Assembly (NCBI GenBank): GCA_966128725.1
Contig: CBHYLN010000006.1
Coordinates: forward strand, 6,236 to 70,235
Length of the DNA: 64,000 nucleotides
Source: an uncultured bacterium
GTDB lineage: Bacteria > Bacteroidota > Ignavibacteria > OLB7
Direction of reading: 5' to 3'
Within the stretch, counting starts at the first letter, position 1. Each line of letters begins with the position of its first letter. The notes under the pieces are model-generated. The model made no database searches and was not told where the DNA came from. It was given only the letters and a program-made list of their open reading frames with translations. This document shows positions 20,452 through 30,789 of the stretch, piece by piece. The position numbers and the translations under genes are program-made.

Positions 20452-23088
20452 TCAGCCAACCGGAATCCAATAGGAGAACTTGAGCGTGAAGAAGTTGGTC
20501 CCGAGGGCGGTAATGGACTGGAACAGATCGTCCGGGGCCACGGGCCTGCCGGAGGAATCGTACAGCGATCGATCCTGCTGCCATACCAGATACATGGTGC
20601 TGCCGGGCAGCCACTCCCATCGCATCACCAGATTGCTCCTGAAGGAAACGAAGTAATAATCCGGGAAGGGAATGTTGAACCGGGACGCACCGTCGGTAAC
20701 GGCATATCCCTCATCGGGCACCGGTGTGATGCTGGTTCCGTCGGTACCGTACATCCGCAGGTCGCTGCGCCGCGCGGCAACCAGCTCGCCAAACGAATCA
20801 TATCGCCCGGAGGCCGCGAACGGTTCGGCATATAATTCCAGGCTCATGTCCGGCGAAAGCGAGTACCGTGCCCGCACGGTTGCGTTGATGCTTGTCTGGT
20901 ACACACGGCCGAACACATAACGCGCACCGTAGGTTGCGGCCGGCCCGTCGTTGTACGCCGCAATGAACTGCCGCGTGGTGTTCGATCGCGAATACGTTGG
21001 CTCGAACCGCAGCTCCAGGCGGTCGCCAATAATCGTGCTGATCGACGCCCATGCATTGTAGTACCACTGCTGCTCCCCGTTCCCACCGAAGTTCAGTCCG
21101 GCACTGCCCATTGTGCGGGCGCCGTACGGCGAGTTGACACTCACCGATCCATCCCAGTTCCACGGCACCGCCATCAACGGCCCACCACGTGTCATGTCGT
21201 CGGCGATGCCGGTGGTGCCATAATCGGCCGAAGCCTGTACGCCCCAGAAATTGGGCAATGTCGCGTTGAAGTTCAGGGCAAGCACCGAACCGGAACTTTC
21301 CCACTCGAAGTTGAACGGACTGGATAACGACAGTGTTGCCGAATAATCGTGGAACAGTGCCGTGGGCGTCGTTTCGCGGTAGATAAGCTGGTTCTCGAAG
21401 TTGATATCGGAAGCCGAGCTCAAACGCCCGATGTCATTCAGTTCCAGGCCGGGAGTCTCCACCCAGCCGGATATGGTCCACAGCCAATGGTCGCCGTCGC
21501 GCTTCACCATGGCAAGCCCGCCTGTAAGGCCGGCCAGCGATGTCCGGGTGGAATCGAACCTGACGAACTCGGCATCGGGCCTCTGGAAGTAATGCGCGCT
21601 GGAACGCTGCACGCGCGCAATGGCCCGGGAACTACCGCTTATGTAGCTTCCGCCCAGATGCCCGTTCAGCTCGTAGGTTCCCTTGTCGAACCGAAACACC
21701 CAATCGCCGCCACCGCTGATGGCGGTGCGCACCAGGCGATCATCAAGCGGTGTGCCGGCCTCAAGATCGCGGCGCACGGCGGTCACCATGCCACCAATTT
21801 CCGAGCCGTCGTCGCTCAGTTCGTGCCCAACCCTGGCAACGGCATACGCCGTTACGGGCTCGATCTGCTGCGCATGGATTTCGGTGCTGGAATCCGAAAC
21901 GTCCACGAACTCGCGCTGGGTAACGGCAACCAGACCACCCAACGACGTGCCGGAGGCAAGGCGACCAGTGACCTTCCCGGCGCCAAGAATGGTGGTGTTG
22001 GGCGGCGGCGGGGCCACGGCGTTTGCCGGGGCGCCATGTGGTGGAGCGCCGATGCGGCGCGAGTAGAAGTATCCGCCCGGCCCGGTAAGCAACGAGATAC
22101 CCTCCACAAAAAAGGGCCGGCGCTCATCGAAAATTGTTTCGTACGCCGAAAGGTTCACCTGCGCGGGATCGGCCTCCACCTGGCCGAAGTCCGGATTCAC
22201 CGTTGCATCCAGCGTAAGGTTCGATCCCAGGCCCATCTTCAAGTCAAGGCCGGCATGCGCATGCACCTCGGACTCCTGCGCCGTCGGATCGCCGGGCGTA
22301 CGCTTCGGTGCAAGCGTTGCGCTGAGTGAGGCGTACGGCATTACCTCCAGCCGCATCGTGGGGCGTATCCCGCGTATGCCGGTCAGCTCGCCGAAACGCG
22401 AAGCCCAGCCGGCCACCTCCTTCGGGATCGGTATCCAGTAGATGTCCTCGTTGTTGCTGGGCACATACCGGTCCATGTTCAAGCCCCACACCTGCTCCTC
22501 GTGCTCGTTGAACCGAAGCTGCGAAAACGGAATGCGCATCTCGGCGGTCCAGCCGGCCGAGTCGATCGCCACGCGTGCTTCCCACACCGGATCGAAGCTG
22601 AACTCGCGGGAGAACTCGTTGTCCTCGGCGTGATAATAATCTGTGCGTACGCCTGCGGCGGTTACGCTGAAGCTGTAGGCCGTGCGGCGATCGTGATACG
22701 TATCCAGCGTCACGATGAAACGTTCGGCCGAGCCCGAGTTATCGCGGCGGGTAAGCATCGAATGCAGCTCCTCCGGCTTGGAGCAGTGCATGCGCGCAGC
22801 CACGTACAGCGCATCGGCATCGTACATGAACGCCACCTCGGTTGGCGCGCTCGGCGCCCCGCCCAGCACCGGCTCCTTTTGCAGGAAGTCCGTACGGAAC
22901 GGCACCGCACTCCATACAGCATCATCAAGGCGACCGTCCACGTGTGGGGCGGCCCCCGCCATTGCCACGGCGGTAATACGCTTTCCCGCGGCCGGGTCCG
23001 GCGACGGCGGTGAAATCTGGGCCGCTGCATCGCGGGCCACAACCACGAACAGGAGTACGGCTGGAAGAACGTATCGCAAACGTGTCAT
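20452..23088 (-). CDS. DUF5916 / CBM9-like-domain outer-membrane or secreted protein
   Basis: 878 aa with signal peptide (MTRLRYVLPAVLLFVVVARDAAAQ). N-terminal DGRLDDAVWSAVPF...FLQKEP region typical of CBM9/DOMON-like domains that head DUF5916 proteins. Beta-rich remainder. Confidence 0.55.
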   Translation of the reverse strand: MTRLRYVLPAVLLFVVVARDAAAQISPPSPDPAAGKRITAVAMAGAAPHVDGRLDDAVWSAVPFRTDFLQKEPVLGGAPSAPTEVAFMYDADALYVAARMHCSKPEELHSMLTRRDNSGSAERFIVTLDTYHDRRTAYSFSVTAAGVRTDYYHAEDNEFSREFSFDPVWEARVAIDSAGWTAEMRIPFSQLRFNEHEEQVWGLNMDRYVPSNNEDIYWIPIPKEVAGWASRFGELTGIRGIRPTMRLEVMPYASLSATLAPKRTPGDPTAQESEVHAHAGLDLKMGLGSNLTLDATVNPDFGQVEADPAQVNLSAYETIFDERRPFFVEGISLLTGPGGYFYSRRIGAPPHGAPANAVAPPPPNTTILGAGKVTGRLASGTSLGGLVAVTQREFVDVSDSSTEIHAQQIEPVTAYAVARVGHELSDDGSEIGGMVTAVRRDLEAGTPLDDRLVRTAISGGGDWVFRFDKGTYELNGHLGGSYISGSSRAIARVQRSSAHYFQRPDAEFVRFDSTRTSLAGLTGGLAMVKRDGDHWLWTISGWVETPGLELNDIGRLSSASDINFENQLIYRETTPTALFHDYSATLSLSSPFNFEWESSGSVLALNFNATLPNFWGVQASADYGTTGIADDMTRGGPLMAVPWNWDGSVSVNSPYGARTMGSAGLNFGGNGEQQWYYNAWASISTIIGDRLELRFEPTYSRSNTTRQFIAAYNDGPAATYGARYVFGRVYQTSINATVRARYSLSPDMSLELYAEPFAASGRYDSFGELVAARRSDLRMYGTDGTSITPVPDEGYAVTDGASRFNIPFPDYYFVSFRSNLVMRWEWLPGSTMYLVWQQDRSLYDSSGRPVAPDDLFQSITALGTNFFTLKFSYWIPVG

Positions 23089-23218: not shown

Positions 23219-24172
23219 TCAGGCGGCGATCGCGGGCTCGGGCTCGGCAATGGCGCCGCGTCGGCGCCGGATAAGCCCATGCGTGGGCGAAAAAACAAAC
23301 GCGAGAAGGAACTCGAACCCGGCCGTGACGGCAATCGCGCCCGCGATGGAACCGTCGAGCCAGGAGGCAAGCAGATAACCGCCGGCAGCGGCGCCCACGC
23401 CCAGCAGCACGGCGATCGCGATCATGTAGCCCAGCCGGTCGGTAAGCAGATACGCGGCCGACGGTGGCACAACCAGCATTGCAACCACCAGAATCGCGCC
23501 CACCGATTCAAACGCCCCAACGGTGGTAAGCGACACCATGCCCATCAGCATGTAGTGCCAAAGGGTAGCCGAGATTCCCAGGGAGGTTGCAAGCGCGGGG
23601 TCGAATGCCGTTACCTTCAACTCCTTGTAGCCGAACAACACGAACAGCAGATTCAGAACGAACAGCGCGCCAAGCGTCCATACCGCGCGTGGCCCAAGAA
23701 CAAGCCCGGAGGCGGTTACCCACTGGTCCAACGGCACGTAGGCGATCTCGCCGTATAGCACGCACTCCTGATCCAGATCCACCTGTGAGGCGAACAACGT
23801 GATGAGGATAACGCCAAGCGCGAACAGCCATGTGAACGTTACGCCGATGGAAGCATCTTGTTGCAGTTTTCCTCGGCGGTGCAACGTCTCGATGGCAAAC
23901 GTGGTGATCACGCCCAGCGCGCCGGCGCCAACCAGCATGGGCAGCGGTGCACGGCTCCCGGAAAGAAGGAACGCGATCGCAATGCCCGGCAACACGGCGT
24001 GGCTGATGGCATCGCCCAGCATCGCCATGCGCCGCAGCACAAGGAAGCACCCAACAAGCGAGCACGCCCCCGCGGCGAGCGCTCCGGTCAATATGATCCA
24101 ACCGCTATCGGACATCGTTGCACGTTCCTGTTGTTGATTGTCGGCGTCCCGCCTCGCCGGCCCGGCGACCAC
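23219..24172 (-). CDS. metal (Mn/Zn/Fe) ABC transporter permease (ABC-3 family)
   Basis: 317 aa, ~8 TM. Glycine-rich helices typical of ZnuB/MntB/TroD permeases. Confidence 0.7.
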   Translation of the reverse strand: MVAGPARRDADNQQQERATMSDSGWIILTGALAAGACSLVGCFLVLRRMAMLGDAISHAVLPGIAIAFLLSGSRAPLPMLVGAGALGVITTFAIETLHRRGKLQQDASIGVTFTWLFALGVILITLFASQVDLDQECVLYGEIAYVPLDQWVTASGLVLGPRAVWTLGALFVLNLLFVLFGYKELKVTAFDPALATSLGISATLWHYMLMGMVSLTTVGAFESVGAILVVAMLVVPPSAAYLLTDRLGYMIAIAVLLGVGAAAGGYLLASWLDGSIAGAIAVTAGFEFLLAFVFSPTHGLIRRRRGAIAEPEPAIAA

Positions 24173-24190: not shown

Positions 24191-24682
24191 TTATTGCCGC
24201 CCGGCGTTCCATGCGGCCAGGTTGCGACGTATCTGCGCGATATGCACCGGCACGTGTGCCTCGTAGGTATCCAGCCAGTCATCCAGCGTCATGGTCCCGT
24301 TTTCGGGATGTTCGATCGTGTTGGCCCAGACCGATTCCGGCAACGCCCGTATCAGCTCGTACGTGGTTGCGCGCAGCACGCGGAACAGCTCCAGCGCGGC
24401 GTCGGTATCACGGTTGTGATAGTCCAGCGCCTCGGCCCACTTGTTTTCGTCGTACGCGATCACCGCGCTGCCCGGCTCGGCAATGGCCCGGCGGCAACGG
24501 ATGAAACTGTTGGCTTCGCTGTCGGCAACATGGATCACTACCTCATGCACCGTCCACTTCCCGGGCGCCGGGCGATACTGCCACATCTCGCGCGGCACCT
24601 CGGCAAGCGCTTCGGTAAGCAGCTCGTATGCCCGGGCATAGGAATCCAGTTTCTGGAGCCGGATCTCCGGTTCAAACGTCAT
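24191..24682 (-). CDS. DinB/YfiT-like (DinB_2) metal-dependent four-helix-bundle protein
   Basis: 163 aa. Spaced His residues (WTVHEVVIHVADSE ... HVPVHIAQI) as in DinB_2 family. Confidence 0.55.
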   Translation of the reverse strand: MTFEPEIRLQKLDSYARAYELLTEALAEVPREMWQYRPAPGKWTVHEVVIHVADSEANSFIRCRRAIAEPGSAVIAYDENKWAEALDYHNRDTDAALELFRVLRATTYELIRALPESVWANTIEHPENGTMTLDDWLDTYEAHVPVHIAQIRRNLAAWNAGRQ

Positions 24683-24754: not shown

Positions 24755-25555
24755 CTACCACACCGGGTATCGCAACGATAGTCCAGCGCCAATTCGGTAG
24801 TCGGGCGCGGCTTCGCTGAGGCCCGCACCAATCGAACCATCGAACTGTAGCCAGGGCAACACCAGGCAGGTAAGGCCCGCGTTTGCCGAAAACTCGGCCG
24901 TCGAGCCGGAGCGAGAGCGCCCGAGCACCTCGGCGAACATGCCCACCTCATCGGTGACCGCCAGGCCCACGACAAGCGTGTAGATGAATGCGCCTTCGGG
25001 GTCGGAGCCATCCCACTCGGCGCCAATGTTCGCCCCAACATCCAGGGCCTCGCCCAGGGAATGTTCGGCCGCCACCCGGAACGATGGCGCCACGTTTGCG
25101 GGCCGGTAGGCCGAATCACCAACGGGAAGCTCCAGCTCGCAGATCAACGCCAGCCTGGGCAATACGTCGCCCTCCGGGGCCACAGCGGTTTTAACACCCA
25201 CTGTGACGCTCCCCAACCCGCCGTGTTCCATGTCGTTCACGCGAACCACGTCGTTAGGGAAGTGATACGCGGCGCCCAGACGCAACTCCGTGGTCCCAAG
25301 CAGCCCATACCGCGCCAACACACCAATCTCGGCATCCAACATTGTGGAGCCAATCGAGCTCGCATCATCGGCCAACGTAAGCCAACCACCTTCGGTCTGC
25401 AGCCAGCCCTCCGGCACCACCCAGGCGGACTCGGTTTCGTCGGGACGGTCGGTAATCATGGTGGCCGGCTCCTGCGCGCGCACCTTGGTGGGCAAAACCG
25501 CCGATGCTAGAAGGGCGGCAACAAACAGCGATACGATGTACACACGTGTGATCAT
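24755..25555 (-). CDS. outer-membrane beta-barrel protein (MetA-pathway/'ITDRPD' transporter family)
   Basis: Signal peptide (MITRVYIVSLFVAALLASAVLPTKVRAQ), ITDRPD motif, alternating beta-strand pattern and C-terminal aromatic residue. Start trimmed to 25553-25555. Confidence 0.5.
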   Translation of the reverse strand: MITRVYIVSLFVAALLASAVLPTKVRAQEPATMITDRPDETESAWVVPEGWLQTEGGWLTLADDASSIGSTMLDAEIGVLARYGLLGTTELRLGAAYHFPNDVVRVNDMEHGGLGSVTVGVKTAVAPEGDVLPRLALICELELPVGDSAYRPANVAPSFRVAAEHSLGEALDVGANIGAEWDGSDPEGAFIYTLVVGLAVTDEVGMFAEVLGRSRSGSTAEFSANAGLTCLVLPWLQFDGSIGAGLSEAAPDYRIGAGLSLRYPVW

Positions 25556-25586
25556 GGCTTCGTTGAGTGTGGGCCGCACGGAACGA

Positions 25587-26906
25587 TTATCGGTACGGAA
25601 TGGCACGTTCGTGCGGATCGCTCGACGGCCGGTTCAGCAATTGCTCCAGCCGTTCCTCCAGTTCGGGCGTCAGCACGTGTTCGATCGATTCGGCATCGTC
25701 GTGTACGTGGTCGGGCGCGATCTGAACATAGTCGGTGAGATATACCTCCCACAATCGGTGCAAACGGGTAACACGTTCGCCCTGGCGGCTGCCCTCCGGT
25801 GTAAGCCGCCATGCTTCCCCCTGCTGCTCCAGATAGCCATGCCGCGCCAGACGCCGCACAACGCGCAGCAGCAGCGCATGCGGCATCGAGCGCCGCGAGC
25901 GGATCTCGTCCAGCCCGCGAGCGGCAAACGGCTGATGATCAACCTCGGCCAGGTGGTGGAACGCCTTCAGGACGTTTTCCTCCAGCGTGCGGCGCCGGTT
26001 GTTTCGCTGGCGTCGCAACCGCGCAACCGCGCCGCGCCTGGGGGCGGCCAGCACGGAGACGGCGAAGATCAACGTGGCCGAGGTGACAATCCACGGGCCT
26101 GTTGGCATGTGCGGAGCCACGTAGCTGACAAACGCACCGGAATAGCCGGCGAACGCGCCAAACGCGGCGGCCAGTAACAGCATCACCGGCAGGCGATCGG
26201 TCCAGTAGCGCGCTGCTGCGGCGGGCGTGATCAACATGGCCGCCATCAACACCACGCCAACAGCCTGAATGCCAACCACCACGGCAAGCACCATCAGCGT
26301 TGTAAGCACGATCTCCAGACCCCGCACCGGCAGGCCCAGCGATCGGGCAAAACCGCCGTCGAACGCCAGCAGCTTGAAATCCTTGTACAGCAGCAGGATC
26401 GCCAGCACCAGCACCAGACTTACCGAGGAGAACACCACCACATCCTCCGGAAGCAGCGAGGCTGCCTGGCCGAACAGGAACTTGTCCAGCCCGGATTGCT
26501 CGGCCGCGCCGGACGCCTGGATGTGGGTCAGCAGCAGGATGCCCAGCCCGAAGAACACGCTCAGCACGATGCCGATCGCGGAGTCCTCACGGATGCGCGA
26601 GTTGCGCACGATGGCATCCATCGCCATCATGCTCAACCAGCCGGCGATCGCCGCGCCGATCAACAACGCCACCGGATTTTTTCCGCCGATCACCATGAAG
26701 GCAATGGCCACCCCGGGCAGCGCGGCATGCGCAACCGCATCGCCAACCAGCGCGCGCTTGCGCAGCAGGGCAAAGCAGCCGATCGCGGCCGACCCGATTC
26801 CCAGAAGAACCGAGCCAACCACAACCACCCGCACATTGAGATCGCGCAGCAGAAGAAAATTCAGGATATCCACGGCATGGTCCGGTACAGTCAAATGAAT
26901 GGCCAA
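25587..26906 (-). CDS. metal ABC transporter permease fused to a C-terminal DtxR/MntR-like metal-sensing domain
   Basis: N-terminal ~290 aa ABC-3 permease (8 TM). C-terminal ~140 aa soluble domain (LRVVRRLARHGYLEQQG..., RLHRLWEVYLTD) resembling the winged-helix and dimerisation region of DtxR-family repressors. Confidence 0.6.
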   Translation of the reverse strand: MAIHLTVPDHAVDILNFLLLRDLNVRVVVVGSVLLGIGSAAIGCFALLRKRALVGDAVAHAALPGVAIAFMVIGGKNPVALLIGAAIAGWLSMMAMDAIVRNSRIREDSAIGIVLSVFFGLGILLLTHIQASGAAEQSGLDKFLFGQAASLLPEDVVVFSSVSLVLVLAILLLYKDFKLLAFDGGFARSLGLPVRGLEIVLTTLMVLAVVVGIQAVGVVLMAAMLITPAAAARYWTDRLPVMLLLAAAFGAFAGYSGAFVSYVAPHMPTGPWIVTSATLIFAVSVLAAPRRGAVARLRRQRNNRRRTLEENVLKAFHHLAEVDHQPFAARGLDEIRSRRSMPHALLLRVVRRLARHGYLEQQGEAWRLTPEGSRQGERVTRLHRLWEVYLTDYVQIAPDHVHDDAESIEHVLTPELEERLEQLLNRPSSDPHERAIPYR

Positions 26907-26927: not shown

Positions 26928-27752
26928 TCATCCGTCACGCCCGGAGCGGCCCTGCTGGCGCATCAGCTCGGTAACCTCGCTGAGGATATTCAGCCGGCCA
27001 CCGTAGGTCTTCTGCAGAAGCTCGCCGGTGAAGGCGTCGTCGATCGGGCCAAAGGCTACCTGGCGAAGGTTCAGCAGCAACACCCAGTCGAAATATTCGC
27101 GCGCGGTCTGCAAGTCGTGGTGCACCACCAGCACCGTCTTGCCAAGGCGGCGCATCTCGCGAAGCAAATCCACGATGGCCGTTTCGGTGGAGGCATCAAC
27201 GCCAACAAACGGTTCATCCATCAGGTAGATATCGGCGTCCTGCGCCAGGGCACGGGCCAGGAACACTCGTTGCTGCTGCCCACCGGAGAGCTGCGAAATC
27301 TGGCGTTCGGCGAAATCATGCATCCCCACCTTGCGCAGCGATTCGCGCGCCACCTCAACATCGGCCGCGCGCGGCCTGCGGAACAGGCCCAGCCGGCCAT
27401 AACGGCCCATCAGCACAACGTCGAGCGCGTTTGTTGGGAAATCCCAATCCACCGAGCTGCGCTGCGGCACGTATCCCACACGCCGGCGCACGCTGGCAAG
27501 GTCCTCGCCAAAGATCTTCACGTAGCCGCTGGAGAGCGGCACCAGACCCATCACGGCCTTGATCAGCGTTGACTTCCCCGCCCCGTTCGGCCCCACGATC
27601 CCGATCAGCTTTCCGCTGGGCACGGCGAAATCGATATCCCACAGCACCGGCCTGCGATTGTAGCTCACGGTAAGATCGTGCACCTCGAGCGGCGAAACGG
27701 CCCCGGCAACAGGCCCAGCGGAGTGCGGCATGGCGGTGTCTTGAACGCTCAT
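26928..27752 (-). CDS. metal ABC transporter ATP-binding protein (ZnuC/MntA-like)
   Basis: Walker A GPNGAGKST, signature LSGGQQQR, Walker B IYLMDEP. Track ORF trimmed to the ATG at 27750-27752, directly abutting the upstream SBP stop. Confidence 0.8.
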   Translation of the reverse strand: MSVQDTAMPHSAGPVAGAVSPLEVHDLTVSYNRRPVLWDIDFAVPSGKLIGIVGPNGAGKSTLIKAVMGLVPLSSGYVKIFGEDLASVRRRVGYVPQRSSVDWDFPTNALDVVLMGRYGRLGLFRRPRAADVEVARESLRKVGMHDFAERQISQLSGGQQQRVFLARALAQDADIYLMDEPFVGVDASTETAIVDLLREMRRLGKTVLVVHHDLQTAREYFDWVLLLNLRQVAFGPIDDAFTGELLQKTYGGRLNILSEVTELMRQQGRSGRDG

Positions 27753-28699
27753 CGCAGTGCCTTCACGATTTTGTTGACGTTGGCCGACACCATGCCGATA
27801 TACGTCCCCTCGGCGGTTCCGGCGGCCCCCATCGCGTCGGAGTAAAGCTGGCCGCCGATCGTGATATCGTGTCCCTTGTCGCGCACGCCCTTCACCACGG
27901 CTTCGATGGAACGCTTCGGCACGCTCGACTCCACGAACACCGATTTCACACGCCGTTCCACAATCATGTTCACGAGCGATGTGATGTCGGCAAGGCCGAA
28001 CTCGCTCACGGTGCTGATGCCCTGCAAACCGCGCACCTCGATATCGTAGGCGCGCCCGAAATACCCGAAGGCATCGTGCGCGGTAACCAGCACGCGCCCC
28101 TCGCGTGGGATCGAGGCGATCTGCTGGCGCACCCACACGTCCAGCGAATCCAGACGCGCCAGGTACGCCACGGCGTTGCGTTCGTATTCGGCCGCATGCG
28201 CGGTGTCGAACTGCTTCAGTTGATCGGCGACCGTGCGAACCGCGCGCTGCCACAACTGCACATCGAACCAGATATGCGGGTCGTAATTGCCCTTGAACTC
28301 CGGGGGGCGGCGCAGCTTCGCCGTATCGATGCCGGCGGCCACCGGGCTCACGGGCTTGCTTTGGGCCAGCTTCTCCAATGCGTCAACCATCTTCCCTTCC
28401 AGATGCAGCCCGTTGTAGAACACGATGTCGGCATTGCGAAGCTTTTCAAGATCGCCCTGCGTGGCCTTGTAGAGATGCGGGTCAACGCCCGGCCCCATCA
28501 ACGCAACAACCGTAACGTGGCTACCGCCAACGTTGTGAACCGCGTCGGCGATCATTCCGGTTGTCACAACGGCGGTGAACGGCTCGTTGCCGGATCGGCG
28601 CGGCCCTCGCTGTTCGCTGCACGCGGCAAACGCAAACGAGGCAAGAAGCACAAGAACCAGGCGGATGTGTATGCGATGCGATGAACTCATTGTTGGCAA
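27749..28699 (-). CDS. metal ABC transporter substrate-binding protein (ZnuA/MntC/TroA family)
   Basis: Lipoprotein-type signal (LLASFAFAACS). His-containing metal site motifs (VDPHLY, DPHIWFD). 316 aa. Confidence 0.8.
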   Translation of the reverse strand: MPTMSSSHRIHIRLVLVLLASFAFAACSEQRGPRRSGNEPFTAVVTTGMIADAVHNVGGSHVTVVALMGPGVDPHLYKATQGDLEKLRNADIVFYNGLHLEGKMVDALEKLAQSKPVSPVAAGIDTAKLRRPPEFKGNYDPHIWFDVQLWQRAVRTVADQLKQFDTAHAAEYERNAVAYLARLDSLDVWVRQQIASIPREGRVLVTAHDAFGYFGRAYDIEVRGLQGISTVSEFGLADITSLVNMIVERRVKSVFVESSVPKRSIEAVVKGVRDKGHDITIGGQLYSDAMGAAGTAEGTYIGMVSANVNKIVKALR

Positions 28700-29579: not shown

Positions 29580-30053
29580 TCAGACGCTGCCGCGAAGCCG
29601 GCGCAGCATGCGGCGCAACCGGTCGACGAACGAAATTTTGGCGGCCGGCACATTTGGCGCGCGCACACCAATCTCGGCGTACAGCATCTCGTAAAAACGC
29701 GGCGAGCCAAACGGCGCCTGCATTACACGATGCCCCATGGCGTTCAGATCGATGTACATCGCCGCCGCGGCAATGGTATTCATGGTGTGCACGATGAATG
29801 CCCCATGCTCGCCGCCGTTGGCGCGCAGCCACCGCACCACCTCCATCCCGCAGTCGTCGCGGCTGCTCTCCACAAACGTTTCGCCGCCAAGGTCATGGTC
29901 CAGCAACACCAGATCGAATCGTGCCTCGCCAAGGCGCGCGATACACTCGGCGGCGGTTTCCACCGTAAGCAGCTCGCAGGCCACGGCGCGAAGGCGAAGG
30001 CGGATTTCATCGGTACGGCGTGTGTCGTCGTCCAGGAACAGAATCGTCTTCAT
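29580..30053 (-). CDS. stand-alone receiver (REC)-like domain protein
   Basis: 157 aa from the ATG at 30051-30053. LFLDDD acidic pocket, LVLLDHDLGG (putative phospho-acceptor Asp) and FIVHTMN as in CheY-like folds. No output domain. Confidence 0.5.
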   Translation of the reverse strand: MKTILFLDDDTRRTDEIRLRLRAVACELLTVETAAECIARLGEARFDLVLLDHDLGGETFVESSRDDCGMEVVRWLRANGGEHGAFIVHTMNTIAAAAMYIDLNAMGHRVMQAPFGSPRFYEMLYAEIGVRAPNVPAAKISFVDRLRRMLRRLRGSV

Positions 30054-30057
30054 CGCT

Positions 30058-30789
30058 TCACGCTCCTTTGCGCCTGGGCCGTGCTTCGGGCGTACCGCGC
30101 GGGCGCGTCGCCTGGCGTGGAGACTCCTCGCGTTGCACGAACACGCTGTTGGCCAGCTTGTCGGAAACCACGGTGTCGCGCCCGTTGGCCACCAACCGCA
30201 CCGAGCCGTCGAAGGAGATTTTCTCCAGCACATGCACCTGCGCCGCCAGCGACAATCCAAGCGACGATGCGTAGCGCAGAATCTCCGGGAACTCGTCGCT
30301 CACCCGTGCAACAGTTGCAAGCTCGCCCGGCGCCAGATCGGCCAGCGGCACCAGAACACGCTCCACCACCTCGCCCTTCTTGTTCGGGATCGGGTCGCCA
30401 TGCGGATCGTGCGTGGGGAAGCCCAGGAACTGCTCCAGGCGGTCGATCAGGTCGTCGGAATCGATGTGCTCCAGCTCGTCGGCCAGATCGTGTACCTGAT
30501 CCCACTCGAACCCGAGATGCTGAATCAGGAACACCTCCCACAACCGATGCCGGCGCGTAACGTTCACGGCCAGGTCGCGGCCCGCCTTGGTGAGGCGTAC
30601 ACCCTGATACCGCTGATAACTCAGCAACCCGCCCTCGGCCAGGCGCCTCGCCATCTCGGTGACGGCCGATGCGCTGATAGCCAGTTCGCGCGCCACCGCC
30701 GTGGTGGACGCCTTGCCATCGCGCTGCTCCAAGCGATACATGGACCGGAGATAATTCTCGACGGTATGGTTAACTTCAATTTTCACCAT
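30058..30789 (-). CDS. DtxR/MntR-family metal-dependent transcriptional regulator with C-terminal FeoA/SH3-like domain
   Basis: N-terminal HTH (TTAVARELAISASAVTEMARRL). Metal-site region (RRHRLWEVFL, HDPHGDPIP). C-terminal FeoA-like segment. Confidence 0.8.
   Translation of the reverse strand: MVKIEVNHTVENYLRSMYRLEQRDGKASTTAVARELAISASAVTEMARRLAEGGLLSYQRYQGVRLTKAGRDLAVNVTRRHRLWEVFLIQHLGFEWDQVHDLADELEHIDSDDLIDRLEQFLGFPTHDPHGDPIPNKKGEVVERVLVPLADLAPGELATVARVSDEFPEILRYASSLGLSLAAQVHVLEKISFDGSVRLVANGRDTVVSDKLANSVFVQREESPRQATRPRGTPEARPRRKGA

Follow-up and report, generated by a model that had tools for sequence, protein, structure and literature searches.

A YtgCR-type fusion of a metal importer permease to a DtxR-like sensor domain in an operon of an uncultured Ignavibacteria bacterium

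The 64,000-nucleotide stretch of contig CBHYLN010000006.1 examined here (the window) carries on its minus strand a gene in which the permease of an ATP-binding cassette (ABC) metal importer continues into a DtxR-like metal sensor domain, an architecture known as YtgC-YtgR (YtgCR) in Chlamydia. An earlier description made from the letters of the DNA (the sequence-only reading) had reported an open reading frame (ORF) encoding both parts at 25587..26906. We confirmed this ORF to be present and free of interruption, found the quoted peptides RLARHGYLEQQG and RLHRLWEVYLTD within it, and recovered both parts from the ORF list and by Pfam. The start codon given in that reading (TTG 26906, 439 aa) was not retained, as its 11 extra N-terminal residues were without support among homologues. 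Translation likely begins at GTG 26873, giving 428 aa, because this is where both an identical protein in the database (P0001) and the consensus of homologues begin. The gene and its parts are as follows.

25587..26873, minus strand: YtgCR/TroC::TroR-like fusion gene, 428 aa from GTG 26873, stop codon at 25587-25589
26046..26831, minus strand: ABC-3/PsaC-like transmembrane domain, approximately residues 15-276, nine predicted transmembrane (TM) helices
25980..26045, minus strand: strongly basic linker APRRGAVARLRRQRNNRRR, from the sequence and the AlphaFold2 secondary structure
25803..25979, minus strand: winged helix-turn-helix subdomain, residues 299-357, including E299-N300 (the DtxR E9-M10 position)
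25590..25802, minus strand: metal-binding/dimerization subdomain, residues 358-428, Pfam Fe_dep_repr_C

The N-terminal part was recognized by Pfam as ABC-3 (residues 26-286 of the 439-aa ORF, E 7e-66). An AlphaFold2 model was built from a 71-sequence alignment, with a mean predicted local distance difference test score (pLDDT) of 87 and a predicted TM-score (pTM) of 0.72. The membrane part of this model was compared by Foldseek to PsaC of the pneumococcal Mn importer (7kyp), with a TM-score normalized to the target (TMt) of 0.89 and a root-mean-square deviation (rmsd) of 2.6. The channel of PsaC, a protein of nine TM helices, contains an Asp46/His50 coordination site (PMC8346216); the model also has nine helices, and D45 and H49 of the fusion protein aligned with PsaC D46 and H50, so that by alignment the transport-channel residues are intact. 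The ABC-3 domain, the nine-helix PsaC-like fold and the Asp/His channel site together describe an ABC-3 metal importer permease of cluster A-I, like PsaC, MntB, ZnuB and TroC. None of the NCBIfam equivalog cut-offs (SloB, AztB, ZnuB) was reached, leaving neither of the two permeases nor the regulator with an equivalog-level assignment, and therefore no specific orthologue name is warranted.

Residues 282-312 were predicted by AlphaFold2 as one continuous helix leading from TM9 into helix 1 of the DtxR-like domain, and the basic character of the linker was kept across the homologue alignments. We infer an external N-terminus and a cytoplasmic C-terminal domain from the count of nine predicted helices, from the basic loops and from the strongly basic segment APRRGAVARLRRQRNNRRR that follows TM9. 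A cytoplasmic C-terminus would therefore place the sensor just beneath the transporter, where it could sample imported metal.

The C-terminal extension had been likened in the sequence-only reading to the winged-helix/dimerization part of DtxR/MntR-type regulators, and Pfam, NCBIfam and Protein Data Bank (PDB) alignments agreed with this. A domain search of the region returned Fe_dep_repr_C at residues 369-437 of the 439-aa ORF (E 8e-24, 83.9 bits against a cut-off of 27), and the NCBIfam DtxR and MntR models aligned weakly to residues 314-437. The PDB sequences of DtxR, IdeR and SloR aligned over DtxR residues 10-133, and therefore both the winged-helix and the metal-binding/dimerization subdomains are present; no SH3 domain follows them. 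The winged helix-turn-helix fold is judged present, with the PF01325 sequence signature absent, because the region aligns to DtxR 10-73 and is predicted as a winged helix-turn-helix. When the modeled C-terminal domain was compared by Foldseek to the cores of DR2539, IdeR and DtxR, including DNA-bound forms, TMt values of 0.83-0.85 and rmsd values of 1.7-2.1 were obtained, and the core fold of the wider set DtxR, IdeR, MntR, SloR and DR2539 was matched at TMt 0.8-0.85.

The metal ligands H372, E376, H391, E395, E398 and H399 correspond to DtxR H79, E83, H98, C102, E105 and H106, while N300 occupies DtxR position 10 with Asn instead of Met. Five of the DtxR-family ligands (H79, E83, H98, E105, H106) are thus conserved in the fused domain, and the Glu at position 102, which is Cys in DtxR, is shared with SloR and DR2539, both Mn-responsive according to their PDB entry descriptions. 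Across 71 homologues and 56 loci, N300, H372, E376, H391, E/D395, E398 and H399 were invariant or conservatively replaced, which settles in the affirmative a point of conservation that the earlier reading had marked for checking; judged by alignment, the DtxR metal-ligand set in the fused domain is intact. Both the family signature LTPELE and a DPH motif lie in the metal-binding/dimerization subdomain, within a signature common to the fused domains (RLHRLWE.YL...EH.LTPELE...DPH..IP), and E310, R328, R367 and T402-P403-E404 (428-aa numbering) are invariant specifically in the fused domains. Unlike free DtxR-family regulators, the fused domain is tethered to a membrane protein, has a variable recognition helix, is undetected by PF01325, lacks the SH3 domain and contains a three-residue insertion in the turn of the helix-turn-helix.

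Both parts of the protein were observed in one unbroken frame in 81 of 81 related loci from different genomes, which excludes the frameshift about which the sequence-only reading had been cautious. Conservation in relatives, a second check it had proposed, was likewise found: all 120 of the best database homologues (415-439 aa, 57-100% identity) contained both Pfam domains. BLASTP against the YtgCR proteins of C. trachomatis and Protochlamydia (sequences from Supplementary Data 5 of PMC7755916) gave collinear alignments at 29% identity (residues 23-428 against 20-444, E 6e-61) and 33% identity (E 1e-81), respectively, each covering approximately 95% of both proteins and passing through the junction. 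A neighbor-joining tree of 142 columns was calculated from the fused domains, the free regulators of the same loci and DtxR. With this limited sampling of free regulators, all fused domains, including those of Chlamydiae, formed one clade apart from the free regulators (bootstrap 100/100). Because of this full-length collinear homology and the single clade of fused domains, the window gene is almost certainly a member of the YtgCR family, and an independent convergent fusion was ruled out on the same two grounds.

The architecture is already known, from work on Chlamydia YtgC-YtgR in 2011-12, and is widespread. The novelty implied by the sequence-only reading therefore falls away, as the same fusion is the studied C. 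trachomatis YtgC-YtgR (CT069), to whose family the window protein belongs. The primary papers on that protein are reportedly those of Akers in 2011 and Thompson in 2012. Literature searches by Pfam names or by 'DtxR-like domain' returned nothing beyond the Chlamydia work, and Deinococcus MntB (DR2283) was dropped as a candidate fusion of this kind, as the Deinococcus passages searched made no mention of one. Orthologues of this permease-repressor fusion had been reported before from 11 bacterial phyla (PMC5599777). Our scan of one genome per species returned at least 578 related stretches, the best 80 of which all spanned approximately residues 13-439 of the query. Most of these 80 were from Bacteroidota (Cytophagales, Chitinophagales, Saprospiraceae, Flavobacteriales), with other carriers among metagenome-assembled genomes labeled Chlorobiota, Armatimonadota, Nitrospirales and Hydrogenedentota. 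A profile-free comparison of the C-terminal 144 residues to 1.84 billion cluster representatives gave 767 matches at E <= 1e-10. Among the best 150 representatives (50% identity), almost all were matched at their C-terminal end, and approximately 70 were full-length, at 410-470 aa.

Six representatives (P0128, P0141, P0152, P0164, P0241, P0251) were 130-155 aa long and matched the fused-type domain from their first residues; by their length and alignment they could represent YtgR-like proteins that stand alone after gene fission, or else fragments cut off at contig ends. In another representative, P0159 (612 aa), Pfam recognized Fe_dep_repr_C flanked by a partial ABC-3 domain on its N-terminal side and a further ABC-3 stretch on its C-terminal side. 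The gene is truncated at its start and looks like a TroC-YtgR-TroD triple fusion, although read-through or faulty gene calling could also account for it; were the fusion real, its sensor would be held at both ends, which would argue against simple release by one cleavage. The two closest genomes, L002 and L003, carried the fusion at 73% and 71% identity, with identical synteny including the outer-membrane channel-like gene described below. They are metagenome-assembled genomes labeled Chlorobiota and Armatimonadota, respectively, and at least one of these labels is doubtful.

The fusion gene lies within a string of genes on the same strand, with the following features.

30058..30789, minus strand: DtxR/MntR regulator with SH3/FeoA domain (PF01325, PF02742 and PF04023), heading the same-strand gene string
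29580..30053, minus strand: stand-alone CheY-like receiver, 157 aa, starting 4 nucleotides past the DtxR stop codon
28767..29507, minus strand: S-adenosylmethionine-dependent methyltransferase-like ORF, 246 aa, judged from the sequence by eye only
27749..28690, minus strand: TroA-like periplasmic metal-binding lipoprotein in the YtgA/TroA position (Pfam ZnuA, E 2e-78)
26928..27752, minus strand: ABC ATPase in the YtgB/TroB position (Pfam ABC_tran, E 8e-31)
24755..25606, minus strand: outer-membrane channel-like gene of the Phenol_MetA_deg family (Pfam E 1.4e-19), overlapping the end of the fusion gene
24191..24682, minus strand: DinB_2 protein, between the outer-membrane channel-like gene and the second permease
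23219..24115, minus strand: second, unfused ABC-3 permease in the YtgD/TroD position (Pfam ABC-3, E 3e-50)

The order of binding protein, ATPase, fusion and second permease is that of ytgABCD and troABCD, with two genes inserted before the second permease. The fusion is the first permease gene of the operon (the YtgC/TroC position) and not the second, as it had been labeled in the sequence-only reading. The separate full-length DtxR gene noted there at 30058..30789 was upheld, with Fe_dep_repress, Fe_dep_repr_C and FeoA/SH3 all recognized; its best NCBIfam match was to MntR of the Thermus type (E 2.5e-47), under that model's cut-off. The lipoprotein matched T. pallidum TroA (1toa) at E 2e-83 with all four ligand motifs conserved. 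These form the TroA-type His-His-His-Asp set, whose residue roles we take to be those generally known for TroA. The ATG of the ATPase gene overlaps the stop codon of the binding-protein gene, and the unfused permease also contains a D/H motif, MLGDAISHAVLPG.

The DtxR gene and the TroA-like gene are separated by the CheY-like receiver and the methyltransferase-like ORF, all four being co-directional. The outer-membrane channel-like insertion between the permease genes was also observed in the two closest loci (L002 8257-9132, L003 8257-9108) and was mostly missing from the Bacteroidota loci among those listed, with DinB_2 present in addition in the window. The channel might be the outer-membrane entry route for the same metal. 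An 878-aa ORF with a signal-like N-terminus (20452-23088, minus strand) lies directly downstream of the second permease gene.

The best-studied relative is C. trachomatis CT069/YtgC, in which an ABC-3 permease is followed by a C-terminal DtxR/TroR-like domain, YtgR, within ytgABCD (PMC5599777). YtgR binds and represses the ytg promoter in an Fe2+-dependent manner, and its metal-dependent repression covers trpBA in addition to its own operon (PMC5599777, PMC6504234, PMC7755916), with a response to Zn2+ in other assays (PMC5599777). Immunoblots provided the evidence that YtgR is cleaved from the permease, both during infection and in E. coli (PMC5599777, PMC7755916). The window protein resembles YtgCR (CT069/CTL0325) in its ABC-3 permease followed by an SH3-less DtxR-like domain, in the operon order given above, in the metal-ligand set at 79/83/98/102/105/106 and in a helix-turn-helix that is non-canonical and fast-evolving in both. 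It differs in lacking the WWW motif and in having Asn at position 10, where C. trachomatis has His. The operons differ in the extra genes of the window (outer-membrane channel, DinB, CheY-like receiver, methyltransferase) and in the adjacent free-standing DtxR, which is found in the window and in 56 of 72 related loci and is lacking in Chlamydiae.

The TroABCD-TroR systems of T. pallidum and T. denticola share with the window the close TroA homologue with the same four ligand motifs and the two different ABC-3 permeases. Their cognate regulator TroR is likewise an SH3-less member of the DtxR family, a repressor that responds to Mn/Fe (PMC2628430, PMC5599777). In treponemes, however, troR is a separate gene at the operon end, whereas in the window the TroC-like permease carries the TroR-like module as a fusion and the cluster is headed by another DtxR gene. 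The PsaBC, MntBC and ZnuBC importers share the nine-helix type II-like transmembrane domain and its D/H coordination site; they are built on homodimeric permeases without cytoplasmic extensions, whereas the window importer is a predicted heterodimer with the sensor on one subunit.

For features upstream of the operon we counted the 72 loci whose upstream sequence reached 3.5 kb or more, and for those downstream the 71 loci with enough sequence. A free-standing DtxR with an SH3 domain was observed just upstream of the binding-protein gene in 56 of the 72, and likewise in the window, while 16 carried the fusion without an adjacent free regulator; a second permease was found downstream in 66 of the 71. 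The conserved, AT-rich palindrome TTTAGA-N4-TCTAAA precedes the free DtxR gene in Bacteroidota (exact in 25 of the 56 loci), lying approximately 20-60 bp upstream of that gene (L005-L069, e.g. L013, L009, L024) and just upstream of a Bacteroidota-type promoter box. It is more simply assigned to the free-standing DtxR/MntR regulator than to the fused domain, and is probably the operator of the former. L002 and L003 have instead TTAAG-N4-CTTAA, abutting the start codon. In the window this motif was matched only when two mismatches were allowed, and no more often than by chance (3 found, 3.7 expected). The window has a G+C content of 60-65%, against the AT-rich promoter regions of the Bacteroidota loci, and the inverted repeats in the two promoter regions searched were short GC-rich hexamers without evident meaning.

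The two paralogous DtxR-like modules were compared column by column in the same 56 genomes, with significance determined by the Wilcoxon test on paired columns. Mean pairwise identity was similar in helix 1 (0.62 fused, 0.65 free, p 0.62) and in the metal-binding/dimerization subdomain (0.69 and 0.73, p 0.19), and fell in the helix-turn-helix of the fused domain to 0.34 against 0.59 in the free regulator (p 0.006). Only 3 helix-turn-helix columns reached an identity of at least 0.8 in the fused domain, compared with 10 in the free regulator. The metal ligands at DtxR positions 10, 79, 83, 98, 102, 105 and 106 were kept, or conservatively replaced, in both modules. The winged helix-turn-helix fold was kept in all fused members, and the mean net charge of the recognition helix was higher in fused domains (+4.7) than in free regulators (+2.5). 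The helix-turn-helix of the fused domain also differs among chlamydial lineages, though C. trachomatis YtgR binds DNA. The fused domain may retain a potential for DNA binding, to judge by its fold and positive charge, but its reading positions are variable.

With modest confidence we favor reading the gene as a YtgCR-type feedback module, in which the TroC/YtgC-type subunit of a heterodimeric TroABCD/YtgABCD-type Mn/Fe/Zn importer carries a TroR/YtgR-type sensor. We regard the chances of a released-repressor mechanism, by homology to Chlamydia, as evenly balanced. When metal is sufficient, the fused domain would bind it at two DtxR-type sites, and proteolytic release from the permease would be followed by dimerization, DNA binding and the shutting down of transcription. 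Such negative feedback would couple sensor dosage one-to-one to transporter synthesis. The freeing of a regulator from the membrane by cleavage has a functional analogue in CadC (PMC11484849), but the two are not homologous and CadC is not a transporter subunit. The neighboring free-standing DtxR probably carries the main repression of the operon, and the fused domain is therefore likely an auxiliary or differently targeted feedback arm. The view taken in the sequence-only reading, that the fusion does more than or something other than repress the operon, remains plausible, with some support from the divergent recognition helix. The gating of transport and the sequestering of a regulator, both proposed there, gained no such support.

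Several observations weigh against a YtgCR-type feedback module that acts on DNA. The helix-turn-helix of the fused domain is poorly conserved relative to its free paralogue, contains the three-residue insertion in its turn and escaped a Pfam scan for PF01325 (Fe_dep_repress, the N-terminal DNA-binding domain). No operator-like palindrome above chance was found in the promoter regions of the window itself. The free DtxR beside the operon has a near-invariant recognition helix and, with its conserved palindrome, leaves little apparent need for a second repressor at the same promoter. The sensor is carried by one of the two permease subunits, yet DNA binding of the DtxR type needs a dimer, and the experiments on YtgCR members are all chlamydial.

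A rather unlikely alternative, but one that takes up several of these points, is that the domain is a tethered allosteric sensor acting by trans-inhibition: it would be neither released nor engaged in reading DNA, and metal bound as the cytoplasmic level rises would reorient helix 1 and lock or slow the importer. The DNA-reading positions drift against a background of invariant metal ligands, and the linker is short, with the single AlphaFold2 helix of residues 282-312 joining TM9 to the ligand-bearing helix 1. Transcriptional control could be left to the canonical DtxR, whose probable operator is conserved, a single domain in each heterodimeric transporter would suit an intramolecular role, and the conserved positive charge could equally bind anionic lipid or the ATPase. 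Such a sensor would resemble the regulatory domains of MetNI and ModBC, but on the membrane subunit. The likeness is one of function only (a substrate-sensing domain on a transporter, with product feedback) and not of homology. The regulatory domain of MetNI and ModBC is carried by the ATPase rather than the permease, as are the known trans-inhibition domains, which counts against a sensor on the permease. The ATPase of the window (26928..27752) gave only nucleotide-binding/P-loop Pfam hits (ABC_tran, AAA-type) over the 290-aa stretch scanned, with no MetNI/ModBC-type domain. Also against permanent tethering, cleavage and DNA binding are both reported for the one homologue that has been studied, and a loss of DNA binding would sit poorly with the preservation of the whole winged helix-turn-helix fold in a very old family.

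It is improbable, though suggested by the pairing of the two modules, that the fused domain serves as a partner or decoy that heterodimerizes with the neighboring DtxR and couples the availability of this repressor to transporter number or state. The core helix HRLWEV(Y/F)L and other dimerization columns are nearly identical in the two paralogues, both genes occur together in 56 of the 72 loci, and the single-copy domain has no homodimer partner inside one transporter. The paralogues nevertheless fall into deeply separated clades, and Chlamydiae and the 16 loci without an adjacent free regulator still have the fusion, so heterodimerization cannot be its ancestral function.

The chance that a permease gene and a small regulator gene were joined by a sequencing or assembly frameshift, or that the fusion is recent and unrelated to YtgCR, is negligible: it has for it only the prior that single-assembly fusions can be errors and the separate troR gene of T. 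pallidum-type operons (PMC2628430), and it is contradicted by the continuous frame in all 81 loci, the two domains of all 120 homologues, the full-length cluster representatives, the junction collinear with chlamydial YtgCR and the single clade of fused domains, the first three of which rule out a frameshift or assembly artefact.

The YtgCR architecture is a large and old family and no curiosity of reduced intracellular genomes. Its genes are named in annotation only as 'metal ABC transporter permease', where a bifunctional label is deserved. In most members examined the fusion coexists with a conventional DtxR, and its metal ligands are invariant as against a drifting recognition helix. This coexistence and this contrast frame the question of whether the domain is a released repressor or a tethered sensor, and cultivable Bacteroidota (Pontibacter, Marivirga) would be far easier than Chlamydia for answering it. 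We put forward, tentatively, the possibility that in free-living bacteria of the Fibrobacteres-Chlorobi-Bacteroidetes (FCB) group (Bacteroidota and related uncultured lineages, that of the window among them) the fused domain has ceded operon repression to the adjacent canonical DtxR and is instead a permanently tethered cytoplasmic metal sensor that feeds back on the importer or, by heterodimerization, on the free regulator. If true, this would be a post-translational metal 'governor' made from a transcription-factor fold on the membrane subunit of an ABC importer.

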